Source: Sulfurovaceae bacterium
GTDB lineage: Bacteria; Campylobacterota; Campylobacteria; Campylobacterales; Sulfurovaceae
Length of the DNA: 64,000 nucleotides
Assembly: GCA_016744805.1 (NCBI GenBank)
Contig: JADGDQ010000006.1
Span: 105 to 64,104, forward strand
Reading direction: 5' to 3'
Shown here piece after piece: positions 28,072 through 60,355 of this stretch. Within the stretch, counting starts at the first letter, position 1; the number at the start of each line of letters is the position of its first letter. Both the position numbers and the translations under genes were made by a program. A model generated the notes under the pieces. It did no database searches. It saw only the letters and a list, made by a program, of their open reading frames with translations, and was not told where the DNA came from.

Positions 28072-29229
28072 TTATATTCCCAGATAGCTCTTAATCTCAT
28101 CTACACGGTCTAATTTTTCCCAACTAAACTCATCTTCTTCTCTACCAAAATGACCATACGCAGCTGTTTTACGATATATTGGACGCAAAAGATCCAAAGA
28201 ATCAATAATTCCTTTTGGAGTAAGATCAAAAAGAGCCTCTATACATGTTGTAATTTTATTTTCATCTACAGTTGATGTGCCATGTGTATCTACATAAATA
28301 GATACAGGAGCAGCAACACCAATAGCATAGGCTATTTGTATAGTGGCTTTTTGACATGCTCCTGATGCTACAAGATTTTTAGCTACATGTCTTGCTGCAT
28401 ACGCAGCACTTCTATCTACCTTGGTTGGATCTTTTCCAGAAAAAGCACCCCCACCATGTGGGCAAGAGCCACCATAAGTATCAACAATAATCTTTCTTCC
28501 TGTAAGTCCTGCATCTCCTTGAGGTCCACCAATAACAAATCGCCCTGTAGGATTAATATGATAAATAATATCATCAGACATAAGCTCCGCAGGAATAACA
28601 GCTTTTATAACTTCATTCAGTACTGCATCTTGAACCACCTCTAATGCAACATTATCATGGTGTTGTGTAGAGACAACAATAGTATCAATAGCTACTGGCT
28701 TATCATCTACATATTTTACACTTACTTGTGCTTTTCCATCAGGACGCAAAAAAGGAACTGTACCATTTTTTCTAACCTCTGCTAGTTTTGCTGTAATCTT
28801 ATGAGCTAATGAAATAGGCAAAGGCATAAGCTCAGGAGTCTCTTGACAAGCATAGCCAAACATCAACCCTTGATCCCCTGCACCTATCTCTCCACAACTT
28901 TTATCTACCCCTTGATTAATATCAGGACTCTGTTCACCTACACCATTTAAGATTCCTGCACTACGATAATCAAATCCATAAGCTGCGTCAGTATAGCCTA
29001 TCTCACGCACAACTTCTCTTGCTATATCTTGCATTGGTGCATAAGTATGAGTTTTAAGCTCTCCTGCAATTACACAGAAACCATTACTTAACATTGTCTC
29101 ACATGCTACGCGTGCATTTTTATCATTGGCTATAATATAATCAAGTATCGCGTCAGATATTTGATCTGCCATCTTATCAGGATGCCCTTCTGTTACAGAC
29201 TCACTAGTAAAAATATACTCTTTTGACAT
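28072..29229 (-). CDS. metK: S-adenosylmethionine synthase
   Basis: [36 protein letters not shown] and [16 protein letters not shown] are canonical MetK motifs. Confidence 0.97.
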
Positions 29230-29277
29230 TTTTAATTCCTTGAAAGTATTTTTTGTTTACTGTCACTAAACTTAAAG

Positions 29278-29309
29278 AAGTATCTTTTCACTTAAAGCAA
29301 AAGATACTT
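29278..29309 (-). terminator. Strong hairpin 9 nt downstream of the two-gene ATPase module
   Basis: A perfect 11-bp stem AAGTATCTTTT / AAAAGATACTT with a 10-nt loop is flanked by T/A runs. It separates ORF 29318-30043 from metK. Confidence 0.5.
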
Positions 29310-29317
29310 TTTTAAGG

Positions 29318-30043
29318 TTATTTAACTTTTATAATATAAGTGAAGTCTTTACTTATAGATGCTAAATTAATCAATCCACTACTCAATAAAATAATGACTT
29401 TATCTGTTTCTATATATCTATCATGAATATTTCTACCCCACTCTTCTCTATTAATACTCCACTCAGAGTAAATCGAGAGTAAATCATTCTCTCTATTTAT
29501 ATTCCAATCGTCTTGACAATAGATATTAATGTCAACTGCTTTTCTAGGTAAAATATTCAATAGTAATAGTTTATTAGTATCCCAACTATTACTGCTATAG
29601 TTTATTTTAGATAAATATCTATCATAAATACTTATCTCATTGGCATCTACTAATAAAGCCCTAATATGCTCTATTGCTTTATCTCTATCATCTCCACTTT
29701 TATAAGTAGCCGTAAAACTAACATCAACCTCATCATTTAAAATATTGATGTAAGGGTAAGGATAAGTTCCATCCTTACTATCTTTTGTAAGCATTATTTT
29801 CAATTTTGTACTTTCTATTAGTTCCTTTTCATTGACAAACCTACGAATTTTTACAAATCCTCCATCTACTAAAGACTTAATAAGTTCATCACTTAAGCCT
29901 ATATGTTCTTTTTGAGTCACTGACATTTTAAAGGGTTGTAAATATTTAAAAAGCTTTCGTATCGTCTCTTTATCGTACTTATTTATTTGTCCTCTTTGAA
30001 AAGCAATATATTCAGATATTAAGTCACAATGAAGAGCCAACAT
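29318..30043 (-). CDS. Uncharacterised partner protein with a C-terminal HKD-like (H-x-R-x4-D-x6-SSG) PLD/MIT_C-like motif
   Basis: The protein is 241 aa, and its ATG directly follows the stop of the ATPase gene. The C-terminus reads NIHDRYIETDKVIILLSSGLIN, and an earlier ISIYDRYLS element is present. I recognise no family for the N-terminal half. The DNA is very AT-rich. Confidence 0.6.
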   Translation of the reverse strand: MLALHCDLISEYIAFQRGQINKYDKETIRKLFKYLQPFKMSVTQKEHIGLSDELIKSLVDGGFVKIRRFVNEKELIESTKLKIMLTKDSKDGTYPYPYINILNDEVDVSFTATYKSGDDRDKAIEHIRALLVDANEISIYDRYLSKINYSSNSWDTNKLLLLNILPRKAVDINIYCQDDWNINRENDLLSIYSEWSINREEWGRNIHDRYIETDKVIILLSSGLINLASISKDFTYIIKVK

Positions 30044-31303
30044 CTAACAATCATTTCCTAAAGAATAAATATCTTCTAGTGTTGCATCATAAAAACCCTT
30101 TGGAAATGGTGTTTTAAATTCTCCACAAGAATTAATTTCTATTTTTTTAAATTTACTATTTTTCTTTTTATAATAAACAACTACATCTTCTGCTTTAATA
30201 TCCTTATTAGAAATTAAAAATCTTAGTTTATTAAGAATATGGTCACTATGTGTTTCAATAATTGTAAAATTATTTTTTGGTCTATCTTTAGCAAAAAGTG
30301 CTTCCATAAATCTTGCTTGTGATTGAGGGTGAAGATTAAGTTCAGGTTCCTCAATAATTGTAAGTCTATATTTATCTATATTTTGTTTTTCACGGTTCAA
30401 TGCAAATTGTGTAAGTATTGGTATCGTAGAACTAATAGAACTTCCAAACATTTTCAACTGTAACTCTTTCTTATCAAGTTTTAAAAAAAGTTCTTGTTTT
30501 GATTTATCTACTATCAAATTATAATCAAAAATATGACTAATTGACTCTTCTAAAAATTTTGTATCATATAAATTTAATGCTCTATCTTTATACTTCTCTC
30601 CAAAATATCCTATATAATCAAGATTATAATCATAACTTGCATTTTGTTTTTCAATCATTCCAATATGTCTAATAGAAGTAAGATTTTCTACTAAAACATC
30701 TAAAGGCTTTAATATAAATTTAATTGTTTCTTGTATCTCGTTAAATCTATTAACAAGCTCTTTTTCAACTGAAGTATTCTCTCCTGATAATAAAACTCTT
30801 GTCATCATTTTTAAATTTGTAATTATTTTAAATTTATCAGCTGAATTAGTTAAATACTGATATATCGCTTTGTCATTATTAAATATCTCTTCTATGTTTA
30901 CTTTATATTCTAAAGACTCTTCATTTTGAAGTTCAAGATAAAGTTTCATATCTTGATTATCTATATCTATTCTTTTTAATATTCCATATTCATTATCTGT
31001 TTTATCATCAATATAAGTTAAAGTTAGTTTAGTATTATTTTCTGTAACCTCAAAAGAAAATATAACCTCATCACCCTTATCTTTAAAACTATTATTATCT
31101 CCTAATTCAGAAAAAGGATTATTATATTTTATTCTCTGAATATTATTACCAAAAGTTTTACTTACATTTAAAAGAGATAATCCTTGAAGCATTGATGACT
31201 TACCGCTAGAATTTTCACCCATTATTATAGTAATTGGTTTTATCTCTATACTATCAAACTCTTGAATAGCTTTGATATTTTTACAACCAAATTTTGTAAT
31301 CAT
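30044..31303 (-). CDS. ABC/OLD-type AAA_21-like ATPase (possibly DUF3696-type)
   Basis: Motifs are Walker A GENSSGKSS (aa 29-37), Walker B/D-loop LTIIEEPELNLHPQ and H-loop ETHSDH. The short C-terminal tail is GEFKTPFPKGFYDATLEDIY. Its ATG directly follows the dxs stop. Confidence 0.75.
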   Translation of the reverse strand: MITKFGCKNIKAIQEFDSIEIKPITIIMGENSSGKSSMLQGLSLLNVSKTFGNNIQRIKYNNPFSELGDNNSFKDKGDEVIFSFEVTENNTKLTLTYIDDKTDNEYGILKRIDIDNQDMKLYLELQNEESLEYKVNIEEIFNNDKAIYQYLTNSADKFKIITNLKMMTRVLLSGENTSVEKELVNRFNEIQETIKFILKPLDVLVENLTSIRHIGMIEKQNASYDYNLDYIGYFGEKYKDRALNLYDTKFLEESISHIFDYNLIVDKSKQELFLKLDKKELQLKMFGSSISSTIPILTQFALNREKQNIDKYRLTIIEEPELNLHPQSQARFMEALFAKDRPKNNFTIIETHSDHILNKLRFLISNKDIKAEDVVVYYKKKNSKFKKIEINSCGEFKTPFPKGFYDATLEDIYSLGNDC

Positions 31304-33124
31304 CTATATCCTTTGTGTCACTCTTTGAGCCAACTGCTCTGGCAGTCTATTTAAAGACTCCTCCACTAAAGTTGTATTTCCATGTGTAATAAAGTTATCT
31401 TCATACTCAAATGATGTTATATCTATACCTTGTATCCTATTTTCACTTACAAATTCTAAGAGAGCAGAGGCTACTCCACCCATTTTTGCACTATCACTAA
31501 AGACAAACCATTGTGTATAAGTTAAAGAGAGTTCTTTTAGTTTCTCTTCATCTAATGGCTTCACAAAACGCAAATCTAAGATGGCTATCTCTTGGTCTAT
31601 AAGTTTGGCTGTCTCTATGGCTTTGCCTACACCATCTCCATAGCCTATAAAGAGTATCTCTTTGCCCTCTTGGAGAAGATGAGCCTCTCCTAGAGTGTAT
31701 GCTGGTACTTTGCTATCAGGGGCGGTAAATGCTCCACGAGGATAACGCAAAGCACAAGGATGCGAATACTCTTTTGCAAACTCCATAGCCTCTTTCATAC
31801 TATTTTCATTATATGGGGCTAAAAGTGTCATATTAGGAATAGCTCTTAAAAATGATATATCAAAAATACCTTGATGTGTCTCTCCATCTTCTCCTACTAT
31901 TCCTGCTCTATCTATTGCAAAAGTTACACCCAAATCCATAAGTGCCACATCATGAATTACCTGATCATAGCCTCTTTGCAAAAAGGTAGAGTAGATGGCA
32001 CAAAATGGTTTAAAGCCCTCTTTTGCTAATGCACCCATAGAGGTTACGGCATGTTGTTCTGCTATGGCTACATCCCAAAATCTATCAGGATACTTCTCCA
32101 TCACTGCACTCATTCCTGTACCACTTGGCATAGCAGCAGTAACACCCACTACCTTATCATCACTATCTGCTAAATCAATCATGGTTTCACTAAAGATAGT
32201 TGTAGCAGGTTTTGAGCTACTCTTTTTATTACTTTTTCCTGTCTCTAAATCAAAAGCACTTACACCATGCCAATGCTCCTTTGTCCCTTCTGCTATCTCG
32301 TACCCTTTACCTTTGGTTGTTTGAGTATGTATAATCACAGGGCGACCAAGGTTTTTGGCTATCTCTAGGGTCTCAATAAGGTCTTCAATATTATGTCCAT
32401 TTACAGGACCTATATACTCTAGTCCTAACTCCTCAAAAAGTAGCCCAGGAGTAATAAGCATTAAGGACTCTTCAAATCGTTTTGCCATATAGGTAGCACC
32501 TTCAGGAAGGTGTTCTAATAGGTGAGCTGTGCCTCTTTTCATCTTTTGAAAAAAAGGACTTGCCATACTTTGTGAAAGATATTTACTCACAGCTCCTATA
32601 GGCTTGGCTATACTCATTTCGTTATCATTGAGTATAATAACAGCAGGATACTTACTATCACCCATCTCATTGAGTGCTTCATAGACCATTCCTGCACTCA
32701 TGCTTCCATCACCAATAAATGCTACGGGGATTCTCTCTTCACCTTTGAGTTTAATAGCTTTTGCTGCACCCATGGCTAACGATATAGAGGTTGAGCTATG
32801 CCCTGAACAGTAGTAATCATACGATGACTCACTAGGCTTAGTATAACCACTTATCCCTCCAAATTGACGCAGAGTATCAAACCTATCCCATCTATCTGTT
32901 AAGAGTTTATGAGCATACGCCTGATGACTTACATCAAAAATAAAAGGGTCTTTTTTTGCATCAAAAACAAAATGCATGGCTACAATAAGGTCAGTAGCCC
33001 CCAAAGTAGAACTTAAGTGACCACCATTTTTACTCACTGTTTCTAATATTTTATTACGAATTTCACTAGCTATTCCCTCTAGCTCCTCTATATTACAAGA
33101 TTTTATATTTTCATATCTATTCAT
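31304..33124 (-). CDS. dxs: 1-deoxy-D-xylulose-5-phosphate synthase
   Basis: GGHLSSTLGATDL, the TPP motif GDGSMSAGMVYEALN and the full 606-aa length resemble Dxs. Confidence 0.96.
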   Translation of the reverse strand: MNRYENIKSCNIEELEGIASEIRNKILETVSKNGGHLSSTLGATDLIVAMHFVFDAKKDPFIFDVSHQAYAHKLLTDRWDRFDTLRQFGGISGYTKPSESSYDYYCSGHSSTSISLAMGAAKAIKLKGEERIPVAFIGDGSMSAGMVYEALNEMGDSKYPAVIILNDNEMSIAKPIGAVSKYLSQSMASPFFQKMKRGTAHLLEHLPEGATYMAKRFEESLMLITPGLLFEELGLEYIGPVNGHNIEDLIETLEIAKNLGRPVIIHTQTTKGKGYEIAEGTKEHWHGVSAFDLETGKSNKKSSSKPATTIFSETMIDLADSDDKVVGVTAAMPSGTGMSAVMEKYPDRFWDVAIAEQHAVTSMGALAKEGFKPFCAIYSTFLQRGYDQVIHDVALMDLGVTFAIDRAGIVGEDGETHQGIFDISFLRAIPNMTLLAPYNENSMKEAMEFAKEYSHPCALRYPRGAFTAPDSKVPAYTLGEAHLLQEGKEILFIGYGDGVGKAIETAKLIDQEIAILDLRFVKPLDEEKLKELSLTYTQWFVFSDSAKMGGVASALLEFVSENRIQGIDITSFEYEDNFITHGNTTLVEESLNRLPEQLAQRVTQRI

Positions 33125-52475: not shown

Positions 52476-53477
52476 CTATGAGGATTTCGTTTGACTTTTT
52501 GTAAGAAGTGCTTCAATTGTTGCATTAACATCAGATTGTGTATAGCTAATAGCTTGAAAAATAGCATTTTTAATAGCTTTTGAGTTGCTACTTCCATGGC
52601 TTACAATAGCACAACCATCTATACCAAGAAGTGGAGCCCCACCATACTCTGCGTAATCAACCTGTTTTTTAAGTTTGCTAAAGACTTTCTTTTTCATTAG
52701 CAATGCACCAAATTTAGCAGGAAGAGAGCGACGCATATTCTCTTTCATCATAGTAAAGATAGTTTTTACAACACCTTCACTTGTTTTGAGTAGAATATTT
52801 CCTGTAAATCCATCACAAACAACAACATTTACAGAACCATCAAAGATATCTCCACCCTCTACATTCCCTATAAATCCATCAAGGTCTTGCAGGAGTTTAA
52901 AAGCCTCTTTTGTAAGTTCGTTACCTTTGCTATCTTCTTCACCATTGGATAAAAGTCCAACTTTAGGTGATGCTACACCCATAATTTTTTGTACATACGC
53001 CTCACCCATAGCACCAAACTCATAGAGGTTTTGTGCCTTACAGTCTACTACTGCACCCACATCTAAAACCAAAGTTTTTGTACTGCCCAAAGTTGGCATA
53101 AGTGTAGCAAGTGCAGGTTTAGATATATGAGGAAGTCGTCCAATACGGAGAGTAGCAAGTGTCATTGTAGCACCACTATGACCTGCTGATACTATAGCTG
53201 ATGCTTTTTTGTTACGCACAAGTTCAACAGCTTTAAAAATAGATGAATCTTTTCGTCGCAAAGCATTTGTTGCTTGATCACTCATCAAAATAACATCACT
53301 AGCTTCAACAATTTCAACTTTATCAATATAATATTGGGGGAGAAATGAGAGAATCTCTTTTTTATCACCTACAAGTATAGGCAAAAAGCTCTTCTCTTCG
53401 AGTGCGTGTATACATCCCTCGATGATAGGTTCAGGACCAAAGTCCCCACCCATAGCATCTATGGCTATTTTAATCAT
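52476..53477 (-). CDS. plsX: Phosphate acyltransferase PlsX
   Basis: [12 protein letters not shown] is present, the overall sequence resembles PlsX, and the rpmF-plsX-fabH order is conserved. Confidence 0.95.
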
Positions 53478-53482
53478 CGAAA

Positions 53483-53647
53483 TTAGCTTTTATCTTTTCC
53501 AGTATACTCACCTGTAGTCATGTTCATGTGGTGTGGCATTCTCCATGTTCCATCTTCATCTTTTACTGGTCTTGGAAGTGTTAATTTATAGTGTGTTCTT
53601 CTCTTTGCTGATCTTGTATGACTCACGCGTCTTTTAGGTACTGCCAT
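53483..53647 (-). CDS. rpmF: 50S ribosomal protein L32 (not in the ORF track; below the size cutoff)
   Basis: My translation is [54 protein letters not shown], 54 aa. MAVPKRR...S..R is the canonical L32 N-terminus. Confidence 0.9.
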
Positions 53648-53678
53648 GATATTTCCTTTTTTGTTATTTTATTAGAAT

Positions 53679-54053
53679 TTAAAATTCCATCTCAAATACT
53701 TCATCACTATTATCACATCTATCGCAATAGTGATATTCACTTCTGAATGTATTCATTTCACTTAGTAAGATAAAAGAGATATCCACCTCTCCATCTAAAA
53801 ATTCGATTATATCTAAATCAACTTTATCTTCTACTATTTGGTCACTGATTGTTAGTTTCAAAGATGACTCCATAGTGCTATCAAACGAGACTCCACAGCG
53901 ATTACAAGTAATCTCTACATCACCCTTAATAGCTCCAACTAACTCCAAGCGATGGTACCCACTTTTTTGTAGTTTCCCCTCAAAGTTTACACCATGTTCG
54001 TCTATATTAAAAGGCTTTATAGTGTGTCCAACTTTGTCAAATAGTATCTTCAT
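53679..54053 (-). CDS. DUF177 (YceD-like) protein
   Basis: It has two CxxC pairs (CNRCG; CDRCD) and an acidic C-terminus. Its position upstream of rpmF is conserved. Confidence 0.75.
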   Translation of the reverse strand: MKILFDKVGHTIKPFNIDEHGVNFEGKLQKSGYHRLELVGAIKGDVEITCNRCGVSFDSTMESSLKLTISDQIVEDKVDLDIIEFLDGEVDISFILLSEMNTFRSEYHYCDRCDNSDEVFEMEF

Positions 54054-54061
54054 TGTCTCTC

Positions 54062-54475
54062 TTAGCTAATATCTTTTTGTGCAAAGAAAAATGCAATTTC
54101 AATCGCTGCATTCTCTACAGAGTCACTACCATGAACTGCATTTGCATCAATACTCTCTGCAAAATCTGCTCTAATAGTTCCAGCTTGGGCCTCTTTTGGA
54201 TTTGTTGCACCCATAAGGTCTCTATTTTTTGTCATTGCATCTTCACCCTCAAGTACTGTTACTACAACAGGACCAGATATCATAAAGTCTACAAGCTCAC
54301 CAAAGAAAGGTCTCTCAGCATGAACAGCATAAAATGCCTCTGCATCTGCACGGCTTAATTGAATCTTTTTAGTTGCTGCAATACGAAGACCTGCATCTTC
54401 AAATCTTGAGAGGATTTTACCTACTACGCTTTTAGCTACTGCATCAGGTTTGATGATTGATAATGTTTGTTCCAT
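54062..54475 (-). CDS. ndk: Nucleoside diphosphate kinase
   Basis: [12 protein letters not shown] is present, along with the active-site context NAVHGSDS. Confidence 0.96.
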
Positions 54476-54622
54476 AATGGTTTCCTAGGGAATATAATTT
54501 ACTTCGATAAGTATCGTTTTGGAGAAACTAGAAGTATTTGGGCGGAATTTTACCTAAAATATAATTAATATTTAATTAATTTGTCTCTATTTTGCTAGTT
54601 ATACATGCTACCAAAGAATAAA

Positions 54623-56358: not shown

Positions 56359-57102
56359 TTAATGTTTTAAAGATTTATAGTTTCTTAAAATCCAGTATCT
56401 AAGAGCAAGAAACTCATTATTTTGATTTTTAAATGCATCTAGCAAAGTTTTTAAGAGTATTTCTATAGATTCATTTTTAAGTTTTTTATCCATAAGGCTC
56501 TCTTTAAAATCATCTATAATTGTTTGTCTTTTTTCATTCAAACTATCTCTATCTAATCCACACATCCCAATAGTATACTGCACTCTTTTATCTTTTGAAG
56601 CTATCACTCCATCATCAAAACTTAGCTTTTCCAAAACACTTTCTATCTCAGGGTGAATCATCTTTGGTTTTTCAAACTCTTGATATTGCTGGGCATAAGA
56701 GTGAATATTCTCCTTAAAGCTCTCTTCATAATAGACCTCATCTGCTAAAATTTCAAAATTATTACCTTTGTTGTGATTGCATCTATAACAACACCATAAA
56801 AGGTTATCCCAAGAGAAAGCCAACCAATAATATTTACTTTTAGGACGATAATGCTCCACTGTACTAGAACACTCTTCTAAATTATTATCTCTACACTCTA
56901 TAATTTTTTGCTCACAAAAAGCACACTTTTTATGATAGATAGTTTGGAGAGCCTCTTTTATATCTAGTTGTTTGTAGCGTTGGTGAAAATCTCTCTTTTG
57001 ATGGTATTTTCTATCTCGTATACATGTATTTCTTCTCGTATCAGTTTTCCTATCTATAAGAGAAGCAGGAATACTCTCTAAGTTTTTAGAAACTTTTATC
57101 AT
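56359..57102 (-). CDS. ptuB: Septu PtuB-like HNH endonuclease
   Basis: CAFCEQKI...STVEHYRPKS...WDNLLWCCYRCNHNKGN gives CxxC, H and N, then CxxCNxxK, which is the HNH/Zn-finger pattern. A 4-nt ATGA overlap joins it to the upstream ATPase gene. Confidence 0.75.
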   Translation of the reverse strand: MIKVSKNLESIPASLIDRKTDTRRNTCIRDRKYHQKRDFHQRYKQLDIKEALQTIYHKKCAFCEQKIIECRDNNLEECSSTVEHYRPKSKYYWLAFSWDNLLWCCYRCNHNKGNNFEILADEVYYEESFKENIHSYAQQYQEFEKPKMIHPEIESVLEKLSFDDGVIASKDKRVQYTIGMCGLDRDSLNEKRQTIIDDFKESLMDKKLKNESIEILLKTLLDAFKNQNNEFLALRYWILRNYKSLKH

Positions 57103-58514
57103 AAATCATTCTCTTTAAGATAATCATCTAACTCTTGATGTATCATAGCAATAATTTCTTCTTCAATAATCGCTTTTTTACCTTGTATGCGTTCTTTGAT
57201 AATATTGTGAATTTTACTAGAGATAAAATCTTCTCGTGTATCAAGATTATTGTCATTGTCTCTAGCCCTTGCCGTATCCATATCAAATAGTGGAGATGTA
57301 GAGAGAGAATTTGCCATAAGGTTTTTAATATCATTCATAGGTTGAGATATTTTAGTCGCTCCCTCTTCTTTATAGACTTTAAAAAATATCGCATCATCAC
57401 TAGCCCCAAGTACCGTCACCATACTATGTGTAACCATAATAAATTGAACCTCTTTAAATACTTCTCTCAAAGTATGGACAAAATCATATTTCCATCTAGG
57501 GTGTAGATATAAGTCTACTTCATCTATCAAAACAATAGCTTTTAATTTTGCCAATTCGGTAACATTTGGTTGATTTACTATCAATCTCGAAACCAAATCA
57601 TATAGCCATATAATAGTACTCTTATACCCCTCTGAAAGCTCATTGAAATCAATATCTCCACCATCGAAAATATTTAAATCTTCTCTTAAAATAGTTTTAT
57701 TTAGTACTGAGATAAACTCTTTTAGTAGTGAATGATCTCCTTGATAATTTTTGCCTAATTCATAAAAAGGATCTTTTAAGAGTGTTGTTCTTTGTGAATC
57801 ACTTGTATCAAATAAACCACTGTAACCATATTTATCAAATGTACGATAATCAATTTTATTTCTATTGATACCATAAGCAAATACATTTTGAATATCAAGA
57901 TTATTACTATAGTGTTCAGAAAATTCATCTTTTGCAGATAACTCCATACCACTATCTCTAATATGTTCGATTACAATGCCTGAATACTCTTTTTTGAGTG
58001 CCAATAAAATAGCTTGTAATAAAATTGTCTTCCCATCTCCATTTTCACCCACAAAATATATCTCTTTTTTCTCTTTGAGGTTTTGTATCTCTATATCTTT
58101 GAGGGAGAAATATTTTTTGATTTTGATGGAGTTCAAAAATGCTGTTTCTATATGAAAGATTGGAATTTTACTTACTATTTGAGAGTTTTTATCATTGGTT
58201 TTATTAAAAAAAGTATTTACATGTTGTTGTATAAAGTGTATACTGATTTCCATTTTTGTTGAATAGTAAGAAATATCATAAATATGTTCAATAATATAGC
58301 GTAACTTCTCATCTAATAATTTTAATAAGTTTTCTTCTTTTGCTTGTTCTAGTAAAGAAAAATTATCTATATATAGCTTTATAGTTTTAGAAAATTGTTT
58401 TATGTCCGTGTCAATATCAAGTGTATTGAATTGTTTTATAATACTTGCAGTAGAGATAAGATTTTCAATATCATATAGATTTTTATTAATCCTATTTAAA
58501 AGCTCTTTATTCAT
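57099..58514 (-). CDS. ptuA: Septu PtuA-like ABC/AAA_15-AAA_21 ATPase with an N-terminal extension
   Basis: Motifs are Walker A GENGDGKT (about aa 157), signature-like LSEGYKS, Walker B IVLIDEVDLYLHP and H-loop VTHS. About 140 aa precede the ATPase core. Confidence 0.75.
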   Translation of the reverse strand: MNKELLNRINKNLYDIENLISTASIIKQFNTLDIDTDIKQFSKTIKLYIDNFSLLEQAKEENLLKLLDEKLRYIIEHIYDISYYSTKMEISIHFIQQHVNTFFNKTNDKNSQIVSKIPIFHIETAFLNSIKIKKYFSLKDIEIQNLKEKKEIYFVGENGDGKTILLQAILLALKKEYSGIVIEHIRDSGMELSAKDEFSEHYSNNLDIQNVFAYGINRNKIDYRTFDKYGYSGLFDTSDSQRTTLLKDPFYELGKNYQGDHSLLKEFISVLNKTILREDLNIFDGGDIDFNELSEGYKSTIIWLYDLVSRLIVNQPNVTELAKLKAIVLIDEVDLYLHPRWKYDFVHTLREVFKEVQFIMVTHSMVTVLGASDDAIFFKVYKEEGATKISQPMNDIKNLMANSLSTSPLFDMDTARARDNDNNLDTREDFISSKIHNIIKERIQGKKAIIEEEIIAMIHQELDDYLKENDL

Positions 58515-58587
58515 AAACCATCCTCATAAATTATGAGATAGATTCTAGCATAAGATACTAAAATCTAATGTCTCTTTAGACCCCAAC

Positions 58588-59693: not shown

Positions 59694-60263
59694 CTACAGC
59701 TCCGTACCCATATTAACCAGAGCAAAAACTACAAGCATCATACTTACAATAAGCCCCAAAGAAAAAATAGCATAGGCTTGACGCAACCAATAATATTTGA
59801 TTTTAATCTCTGCACCTAATATATGAAGGTGTTGCAAAATATTCTCTTGGGTCTTCTCTGTAGAGAGTATCACCTCTTTTGCCTGTGCAAGATATTCCAT
59901 AGGAGAGAGTGAGGAAATATCCTGAAAATAGAGAATAGATGTATAGTTTTCCAAATACTCTTTGTGCATTATATTCTCTTTATATCGTGGTTGGATAGCT
60001 TTTGTAGCAAAAAATATAGATGCCATAGCTGTGATAATAATAGCAATAAATGGATACATCATCAAAGGGTGATTGAGTTGCATACCTGAAGCTGTAACGA
60101 TAACTGTGAGGATAAACCCATTAACAGAGATTAAGATACTCGCTTTAGAGTCAGCCAAAGCCGTTAACTCCAAGTTTGAACGCAAAGCATTTCTAAAGAG
60201 TGTCTCAACCGAACGAGGTTTTTTACTTGGTGATTTTTTTAATAAGTTCATATGGGTAGTCAT
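59694..60263 (-). CDS. Membrane protein with a DUF5706/PycTM-like domain
   Basis: NLELTALADSKASILISVNGFIL followed by 2+1 TM helices resembles, as I recall it, the Pycsar-effector (PycTM) / DUF5706 family. GAGGAG lies 6 nt upstream of the ATG. Its stop is 2 nt from the porin start. Confidence 0.5.
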   Translation of the reverse strand: MTTHMNLLKKSPSKKPRSVETLFRNALRSNLELTALADSKASILISVNGFILTVIVTASGMQLNHPLMMYPFIAIIITAMASIFFATKAIQPRYKENIMHKEYLENYTSILYFQDISSLSPMEYLAQAKEVILSTEKTQENILQHLHILGAEIKIKYYWLRQAYAIFSLGLIVSMMLVVFALVNMGTEL

Positions 60264-60355
60264 AAGATACTCCTCATTATTTTTTAAAATTATCTTTTCA
60301 CTCTAAGGAGTGGAAGATTGATAAGAGTATTGTATGATTTTTATTCAAACAGTGG

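Follow-up and report, generated by a model that had tools for sequence, protein, structure and literature searches.

A probable two-gene relative of the Menshen anti-phage system that lacks NsnA, at the dxs–metK locus of a Sulfurovaceae bacterium

We analyzed a stretch of 64 kb from contig JADGDQ010000006.1 of a Sulfurovaceae bacterium (assembly GCA_016744805.1), called the window below, with a focus on two open reading frames (ORFs) that lie between dxs and metK. All four genes, and the features described for them, are on the minus strand: dxs (31304–33124) is the left flank, ORF1 (30044–31303) encodes 419 amino acids, ORF2 (29318–30043) encodes 241 amino acids, and metK (28072–29229) is the right flank. 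The genes are packed without a gap, the TAG stop codon of dxs being followed directly by the ATG of ORF1 and the TAG of ORF1 by the ATG of ORF2. A preliminary description made from the sequence alone had proposed the pair as a novel defense module composed of an ATPase and a phospholipase D (PLD)-like protein. The coordinates, lengths and junctions that it gave are exact, and the Walker A, Walker B/D-loop, H-loop, tail, ISIYDRYLS and HxR-x4-D motifs are at the residues it named. Its view that the system has no name does not hold, however, as profile comparison with PADLOC assigns both proteins as full-length members of the NsnB and NsnC families, that is, of two of the three genes of Menshen. 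What survives as new is a pair without NsnA that belongs to a distinct NsnA-less lineage.

Menshen is composed of NsnA, NsnB and NsnC. According to Li et al. (2025, PMC12065111), who cite Millman et al. 2022, the operon of Solibacillus silvestris protects against T2, T4, T6 and Fado, and this three-gene system is the only one for which anti-phage tests are given. In their description NsnA senses DNA and is of the ParB-DUF262 type, NsnB is an ABC ATPase of the SMC-like kind that ends in a DUF3696 helix, and NsnC consists of an inactive PIN-like N-domain and one of 15 effector domains, among them PB-PLD1 (PMC12065111). The subunits co-purify (10.1101/2025.07.10.664194); how NsnA signals to NsnB, and the Menshen mechanism in general, are unsolved even though protection has been shown (PMC12065111).

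ORF1 matches the PADLOC NsnB profile (PDLC03878) with an E-value of 9.2e-42, its residues 1–414 corresponding to profile positions 1–341 of 345. Its bit score is far higher for NsnB (142) than for AriA (70) or GajA (about 40), and HEC and PDC ATPase profiles also match. In Pfam only AAA_15 and AAA_21 are found (E about 1e-15), and an NCBIfam search of the pair returned nothing useful. The AlphaFold2 (AF2) model of ORF1 (predicted local distance difference test score, pLDDT, 84; predicted template modeling score, pTM, 0.84) has a Rad50/SMC-type head, and its best Foldseek matches are Rad50/SMC heads, retron PtuA and Eco8. Walker A is GENSSGKSS (residues 29–37; 31193–31219), with G29, E30, N31, G34, K35 and S37 invariant among 47 homologs. 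The Walker B/D-loop region LTIIEEPELNLHP (residues 314–326; 30326–30364), which reads LTIIEEPELNLHPQ when taken to residue 327, contains an EE dyad identified by motif comparison of homologs, and the H-loop ETHSDH occupies residues 350–355. Residues ~106–209 (30677–30988) form an insertion at the Insert-1 position that AF2 models as extra β-strands (106–172) followed by a long helix (177–209). The insertion is specific to the clade described below, and the alignment does not contain it in NsnB proteins linked to NsnA, which have 341–374 amino acids. We considered whether it is a captured piece of NsnA and rejected this, as no significant similarity was found (best BLAST E-value 1.6). The C-terminal tail (residues 394–419; 30047–30124), with FPKGFYDATLEDIY, is the predicted NsnC-docking helix. 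The likeness to DUF3696 that had been noted for it has weak support: searched by itself, the tail reaches 16.4 bits where the Pfam cut-off is 22, though the match covers profile positions 1–49 of 52, and a whole-protein Pfam search of ORF1 gives no match to DUF3696. The tail motif FPxGFYDATL is conserved in ATPases with and without a linked NsnA; the docking role of the NsnB tail comes from AlphaFold3 models (PMC12065111). The ratio of nonsynonymous to synonymous substitution rates (dN/dS) of ORF1 is 0.13–0.18.

ORF2 matches the PADLOC NsnC profile (PDLC03880) with an E-value of 1.7e-41 (residues 2–240, profile positions 5–240 of 242), has a dN/dS of 0.17–0.25, and is modeled by AF2 with a pLDDT of 89 and a pTM of 0.71. 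It belongs to a small family that forms 320 clusters at 50% identity in a set of 1.84 billion representatives, nearly all of them 230–260 amino acids long. The N-domain (residues ~1–115; 29699–30043) has an α/β fold in which modeled strands alternate with helices. It had been called unplaceable, but a second NsnC profile, PDLC03907, matches residues 6–129 (E 5e-5), and this region is the putative equivalent of the inactive PIN (“inPIN”) domain of NsnC. The C-domain (residues ~116–241; 29321–29698) has a PLD-superfamily, MIT_C-like fold equivalent to PB-PLD1. Foldseek places MITD1 (2YMB/4A5Z) first, with an E-value of 3e-7, and then PLD2, PLD3, PLD4, Zucchini and Nuc, each with a probability of 1.00, which bears out the MIT_C and PLD resemblance read earlier from the C-terminal HxR-x4-D motif. 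This motif is part of NIHDRYIETDKVIILLSSGLIN (29366–29425), in which the alignment of 45 homologs defines an HKD-like element with arginine in place of lysine: H207-D-R209-Y-x3-D214-x6-S221-S-G223-x2-N226. Compared with the PLD motif H-x-K-x4-D-x6-G-S-x-N, the spacing is kept, the lysine is replaced and the GSxN part is shifted. H126, D141, H207, D208, R209, Y210, S221 and G223 are invariant in the 45 homologs, and D214 and K215 are conserved in at least 90%. D141 lies in ISIYDRYLS (residues 137–145; 29609–29635), after a modeled strand at 136–140, and corresponds to the “acidic residue after β2” of the published PB-PLD1. That domain is described as having this residue, an HDR motif before β5, and a resemblance to MIT_C (2YMB), NucT and Tdp1 (PMC12065111). 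ORF2 fits this description, so that its effector type, which the preliminary description did not recognize, is a published one. At the sequence level, ORF2 has no Pfam match at E≤1, including PLDc, PLDc_2 and MIT_C, and the family profile has none among PDB sequences at E≤10, neither to a PLD nor to a MIT_C structure. One family member (P0059, 44% identical to ORF2) does exceed the Pfam MIT_C threshold (26.4 bits versus a cut-off of 25). The link to PLD and MIT_C rests on the fold and on this member's match.

The gene directly 5′ of ORF1 is dxs, and no DGxQR protein is found among the proteins of at least 100 amino acids encoded in the 64 kb. We collected relatives of ORF2 with their flanks and classified the gene 5′ of the ATPase gene by phmmer and by motif. 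Fifteen loci encode, 5′ of the ATPase, a protein that phmmer matches to NsnA from a canonical relative, locus L014 (E 1e-25 to 1e-160); in L014 itself the E-values are 1.5e-113 for NsnA and 7e-85 for NsnB, and NsnC is 32% identical. The motifs DGKQR/DGRQR and QRxxxW are present in every full-length NsnA of these loci, the nsnA and nsnB genes touch or overlap in all 15, and the ATPases are short (341–374 amino acids). About 20 further loci are NsnA-less, with ATPases of 365–489 amino acids; they come from Campylobacterota and Gammaproteobacteria, and their surroundings are of at least six kinds: between dxs and metK, between PNP_UDP_1 and AIRS genes, between NTP_transf_2 and response regulator genes, between Uma2 and TPS-CHAT genes in Candidatus Parabeggiatoa, between IS4 transposases, and at a Sulfurovum locus with a 489-aa ATPase. 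No DUF262 gene lies within 5–7 kb of the NsnA-less pairs in these six or more contexts. Neighbor-joining (NJ) trees with midpoint rooting separate NsnA-less from NsnA-linked loci with bootstrap values of 200/200 for the ATPase and 191–198/200 for the effector.

The same division is found in the ATPase motifs. The Walker B dyad is EE in 19/19 NsnA-less loci and in 47/47 database homologs, whereas it is EN in 14/14 NsnA-linked loci; the signature region is FGSS[IV]SS in NsnA-less and [IMV]GxGxSY in NsnA-linked ATPases, and the H-loop is ETHSDH in the former and ETHNDH in the latter. Since ABC ATPases have their catalytic base at the second residue of the Walker B dyad, the NsnA-less proteins look competent for hydrolysis where canonical NsnB may not be. 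A literature search found no paper describing an NsnA-less lineage; the published survey was seeded on DUF262 and was therefore unable to find this branch.

Several members of the collection have arrangements of their own. The Sulfurovum metagenome-assembled genome (MAG) GCA_045267865.1 has two NsnB-like loci. One of them (L147, 207–3885) encodes a short ATPase and an NsnC beside era, on a contig that ends before any NsnA could show. The other (L007) encodes the 489-aa ATPase, which has DUF3696, a 247-aa partner with an HDRY motif and an overlapping 144-aa ORF of unknown family, and is preceded by an unknown 243-aa ORF; this could be yet another architecture. The gammaproteobacterial NsnA-less copies encode a 417-aa ATPase and a 245-aa partner and are in more typical mobile or conflict-system neighborhoods: in the JGI contig Ga0672419_0185 (L148) the pair lies between IS4-type DDE transposase genes, and in Candidatus Parabeggiatoa (L143–L146) it lies beside the Uma2 and TPS/CHAT genes.

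Within Sulfurovum, the pair is accessory and has spread horizontally between lineages into one site, in agreement with the earlier view that it is foreign DNA and not core genome. Scanning the GTDB species genomes with dxs as the seed gave 85 distinct Sulfurovum/Sulfurovaceae dxs loci. In this presence/absence comparison 69 loci are empty, with metK 12–313 nt past dxs, 6 contain the pair, and 10 are of other or undetermined content. The site is empty in the closest relative, Sulfurovaceae BB41 (L015), whose dxs and metK are 91% and 96% identical to those of the window. On the dxs tree the occupied sites are spread over four or more separate positions, yet the cassette copies are monophyletic (200/200 bootstraps). 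The GC content is 25.3% in the pair, 38.5% in dxs and 38.0% in metK; the counts of 9 and 32 G+C given previously for 60-nt samples of the pair and of dxs are correct. In each of the four hosts examined, the pair has a GC content of 0.24–0.28 and a third-codon-position GC content (GC3) of 0.11–0.20, against 0.38–0.44 and 0.17–0.36 in the flanks. The dS of the cassette genes is 0.58–1.4, versus 1.3 to saturated for dxs and metK (L001, L004, L005 and L102); the cassette may postdate the divergence of its hosts, or extreme AT bias may lower its dS. The cassette proteins evolve faster than the flanking proteins despite the lower dS, and between hosts the nucleotide identity of the ATPase gene is higher than that of dxs.

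Comparison of the junctions shows that the insert is exactly ORF1 plus ORF2, with the native terminator and the metK leader retained. Past ORF2 lies a hairpin (29278–29309) with a 10-nt loop and the 11-bp stem that had been noted (29299–29309/29278–29288), although it starts 8 nt past the ORF2 stop codon rather than 9 nt. Its arms extend to 22 nt with 91% complementarity, its folding z-score is -3.1, and, being AU-rich, it was overlooked by a GC-based terminator scan. A counterpart with the same AAAAAGTATCTTT arm is present in the empty dxs–metK spacer of Sulfurovum sp. CS9 (L019), and the hairpin is probably the native terminator of the dxs operon rather than cassette DNA. The right edge of the native DNA is marked by a 20-nt host element, AGTTTAGTGACAGTAAACAA (29253–29272), in the metK leader. 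This conserved element (AGTTCAGTGACAGTGAACAA) contains the inverted repeat GTTCA...TGAAC, lies ~20–24 nt 5′ of the metK start, and is found in 48/69 empty and 11/14 occupied Sulfurovum dxs–metK spacers (e.g., L004, L005, L011, L016 and L019); it may be a leader hairpin or an operator. An Rfam search of the ORF2–metK spacer, including this element, gave no match at E≤1. We also considered a secondary deletion in BB41, in which the pair and the leader motif would have been lost together; this is unsupported, as 21/69 empty sites also have no motif.

Because the insert is exact and the native terminator and leader are kept, we view the pair as a promoter-less cassette inside the dxs transcription unit, presumably transcribed together with dxs. 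Sigma-70-like matches that could serve as an internal promoter are not enriched (24 found versus 22.2 expected). No integrase or transposase gene adjoins the pair and no direct repeats bracketing it were found at its flanks, as noticed before; the sole tRNA gene of the window is 14 kb away. A classical island or integrative element is rejected on these grounds, the insert being bounded instead by the dxs stop codon and the native terminator. Because there is no integrase, homologous recombination is the likeliest route, and we infer that the cassette arrives through the conserved dxs and metK flanks; a sliding-window comparison of identity shows no clear rise in dxs or metK beside the cassette.

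The 3′ flank of dxs in Sulfurovum is a variable, defense-rich region that behaves as a defense hotspot. In Sulfurovum sp. 4571-419 (L036; JAMOTK010000031, 8811–13106) two different tandem Septu pairs begin 2 nt past the dxs stop codon, at the insertion point of the NsnBC cassette; metK is not downstream. In Sulfurovum sp. FS08-3 (L091; JQIS01000061, 8872–15793) dxs is directly followed by a gene for an AAA-ATPase_like plus PDDEXK_9 protein and then by genes for a CHAP-domain protein, a Cas1 fragment and a Cas9-like ORF (HNH_4 plus RuvC_III).

The Septu system that had been placed at 56.4–58.5 kb is real (56359–58523, minus strand; PtuA, 474 aa, E 3e-36; PtuB, 248 aa, E 4e-34) and lies between genes for an Lcl_C/DUF4214 protein and a porin, ordinary neighbors with no mobility gene, like those of the NsnBC pair. 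A 202-aa protein (59694–60302, minus strand) has a PycTM (Pycsar effector) domain (E 9e-17); its neighbors are genes for a phosphate porin and an FAD-binding oxidoreductase, with no cyclase gene beside it, and it may be an orphan Pycsar effector. The gene order around metK also differs from that of relatives: in L005 and L011, metK-fdx is directly followed by ndk-yceD-rpmF-plsX-fabH, whereas in the window ndk-yceD-plsX (52476–54484) is found across the locus at a distance of about 25 kb, so that this lineage has undergone a local rearrangement.

The pair is neither Menshen proper nor categorically new; it is a member of a previously undescribed branch without NsnA. It shares with the PB-PLD1 variants of Menshen full-length NsnB and NsnC, an NsnC N-domain joined to a PLD/MIT_C-like C-domain, the FPxGFYDATL tail, and the gene order B then C with the genes abutting or overlapping. 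We do not call it Menshen proper because it is without NsnA, the protein used to define and find Menshen, which combines ParB-DUF262 (motifs QRxxxW, DGxQR and FxxxN) with ParBDB and is encoded immediately 5′ of NsnB in the canonical system, and because its ATPase differs in a diagnostic motif: the S. silvestris NsnB is described with a Walker B EN and a GxG signature, whereas ORF1 has EE and FGSSISS. Most of the NsnA-less ATPases also have the β-rich insertion, in contrast to the shorter NsnA-linked NsnB. Current PADLOC and DefenseFinder rules would presumably not call a complete Menshen here. Like Septu (PtuA/PtuB-HNH), PARIS (AriA/AriB-Toprim) and Gabija (GajA/GajB), the pair combines an OLD/SMC-type ABC ATPase with a small nuclease-like partner, and the use of the ATPase as sensor and gatekeeper is likely common to all. 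ORF1 is not a member of these families, however, and ORF2 has a PLD fold instead of an HNH or Toprim one; a true Septu occupies the identical post-dxs site in another Sulfurovum, as described above.

For the effector, the best structural match is the MIT_C domain (PF16565) of MITD1, a eukaryotic ESCRT-III-associated membrane-binding protein for which no catalysis is known. Both have an IHDR-type motif, but identity is only about 14%, and in ORF2 the domain is joined to an NsnC N-domain, with an ATPase as the partner protein. With the one-HKD nucleases (Nuc, Zucchini/PLD6, BfiI and NucT) and the PLD-like effectors of Mokosh and Azaca, ORF2 shares the PLD fold, a single half-site per chain and the spacing H-x-[K/R]-x4-D-x6-[GS]S, which implies that dimerization forms the active site. 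Its arginine for lysine, the empty PLDc and PLDc_2 searches and a partner that is an ABC ATPase instead of an SF1/SF2 helicase set it apart.

We consider it probable that the pair is a two-gene, NsnA-less Menshen relative that acts through an ATPase-gated PLD-like effector. The NsnB and NsnC profile matches agree with the earlier proposal of a defense-type ABC ATPase and a small nuclease-like effector, and by analogy with the published NsnB4–NsnC2 models (PMC12065111) and with Septu, PARIS and Gabija, such a PLD-family nuclease would likely serve in abortive or direct defense. In the mechanism that we propose, an ORF1 oligomer would bind the ORF2 N-domain via its C-terminal DUF3696-like tails and keep the PLD-like domain inactive. 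A phage cue would act on the ATPase, which in the NsnA-less clade may itself sense infection because there is no NsnA to do so. Binding or hydrolysis of ATP would then release or activate ORF2. Since each chain has only one HKD-like half-site, cutting of nucleic acid probably requires dimerization, as in Nuc or Zucchini, and release followed by dimerization to form the active site is a plausible switch. By cutting nucleic acid, ORF2 would block replication of the phage, either directly or through abortive infection.

More tentatively, and as a conjunction that we think possible but do not favor as a whole, the pair would be an autonomous two-component system in which the ATPase, with its catalytic-base glutamate and β-module, is the sensor. 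NsnB–NsnC would be a self-sufficient core of Menshen and NsnA a bolt-on DNA sensor, the HDR domain would be a genuine phosphodiesterase, and the dxs stop codon would be an integrase-free hotspot served by recombination, whose cargo uses a housekeeping promoter.

A number of points weigh against these proposals. MIT_C of MITD1, the closest solved fold to the ORF2 C-domain, is known as a membrane-binding domain and not as an enzyme; the ORF2 motif has arginine where PLD enzymes have the catalytic lysine; and neither ORF2 in Pfam nor its family profile among PDB sequences matches PLD. The activity of NsnA-less pairs and of PB-PLD1 effectors is a prediction. The sequence read amounts to 64 kb of the genome, and NsnA or another sensor could be encoded elsewhere. 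The insertion in ORF1 is not the sole substitute for NsnA, because two NsnA-less loci with ATPases of 365–373 amino acids (L008 and L113) have proteins without most of it, and NJ midpoint-rooted trees do not tell the loss of NsnA from its never having been present. The pair is outside any classical defense island in the window, Septu being 25 kb away, and the low dS of the cassette genes is perhaps partly an artefact of their extreme AT bias. No relative of the pair was found in IMG/VR viral contigs, which says nothing either way on function.

The pair could be defensive with an effector that is no nuclease, its MIT_C-like domain instead binding or hydrolyzing lipids of the membrane or a different phosphodiester such as a nucleotide signal. 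The membrane-binding character of the best structural match, the replaced lysine, and the lack of a nuclease PLD match in Pfam or among PDB sequences fit this explanation. The invariance of H126, D141, H207, D208 and R209, however, suggests catalysis over mere binding, and the fold also strongly matches those of the nucleases PLD3, PLD4, Zucchini and Nuc. Every other NsnC effector family whose fold can be recognized is a nuclease family (PMC12065111), and we regard a non-nuclease effector as unlikely.

We give little weight to the possibility that the pair works as a three-component Menshen with NsnA or another sensor supplied in trans. Such a sensor could lie outside the 64 kb, genomes with two or three Menshen systems are reported (Li et al., PMC12065111), and two or more NsnB-like loci are present in the Sulfurovum MAG GCA_045267865.1. 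Against it, the invariable contact between nsnA and nsnB at the linked loci points to close coupling, the NsnA-less pairs group apart in a clade whose ATPase motifs differ, and neither a DUF262 gene near the pairs in at least six contexts nor a DGxQR protein in the window was found.

A selfish addiction module, in which a PLD-like toxin and an ATPase antitoxin would maintain themselves by post-segregational killing, is improbable. AAA_21 is annotated as an AbiEii/type IV toxin–antitoxin ATPase family, and the compact two-gene unit has a foreign composition and spreads horizontally, with one relative flanked by IS4 transposases. The nearest relatives of both proteins are nevertheless parts of a validated anti-phage system, Septu or CRISPR-Cas occupies the identical spot in other species, and toxin–antitoxin behavior and abortive-infection defense are compatible.

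It is very improbable that the pair is a decaying, non-functional remnant of Menshen after loss of NsnA. Besides the missing NsnA, sporadic domain loss and pseudogenization in Menshen (Li et al., PMC12065111) would be in keeping with decay, but some 20 loci have both ORFs intact, a dN/dS of 0.13–0.25 shows purifying selection, the catalytic-type residues are invariant, the clade is old enough to occupy two phyla and many sites, and the cassette boundaries are exact with no fragment of nsnA. Finally, a core-genome housekeeping pair tied to dxs or metK, an idea prompted by the tight packing in the dxs unit and by the dxs–metK position of the pair in the first three relatives and in several metagenomic ones, has a negligible chance of being right, being overturned by the 69 of 85 dxs loci, including that of the nearest relative, in which dxs is directly beside metK, by the scattered distribution, by copies at unrelated sites elsewhere, and by the foreign composition.

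Two-gene ATPase–nuclease systems are already common. The NsnA-less branch will escape surveys seeded on DUF262 and any detection rule that demands the full set of three genes, and this lineage, in which EE and EN switch in perfect step with the absence and presence of NsnA, provides a natural comparison for the role of NsnA and lets one ask whether NsnB–NsnC sense phage alone. ORF2 offers a compact, well-modeled MIT_C-like PLD domain with invariant histidine, aspartate and arginine residues as a test case for MIT_C-type catalysis. MIT_C-like C-termini are also found in BrxL (Li et al., PMC12065111), and if the HDR domain is a genuine phosphodiesterase, it would be a catalytic prokaryotic immune relative of these and of MIT_C in the eukaryotic protein MITD1. 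Behind dxs, at its 3′ end, defense cargo that includes the pair, Septu and CRISPR-Cas is swapped without a visible mobility gene, and the locus would thus be an example of flank-mediated exchange in the naturally competent Campylobacterota.

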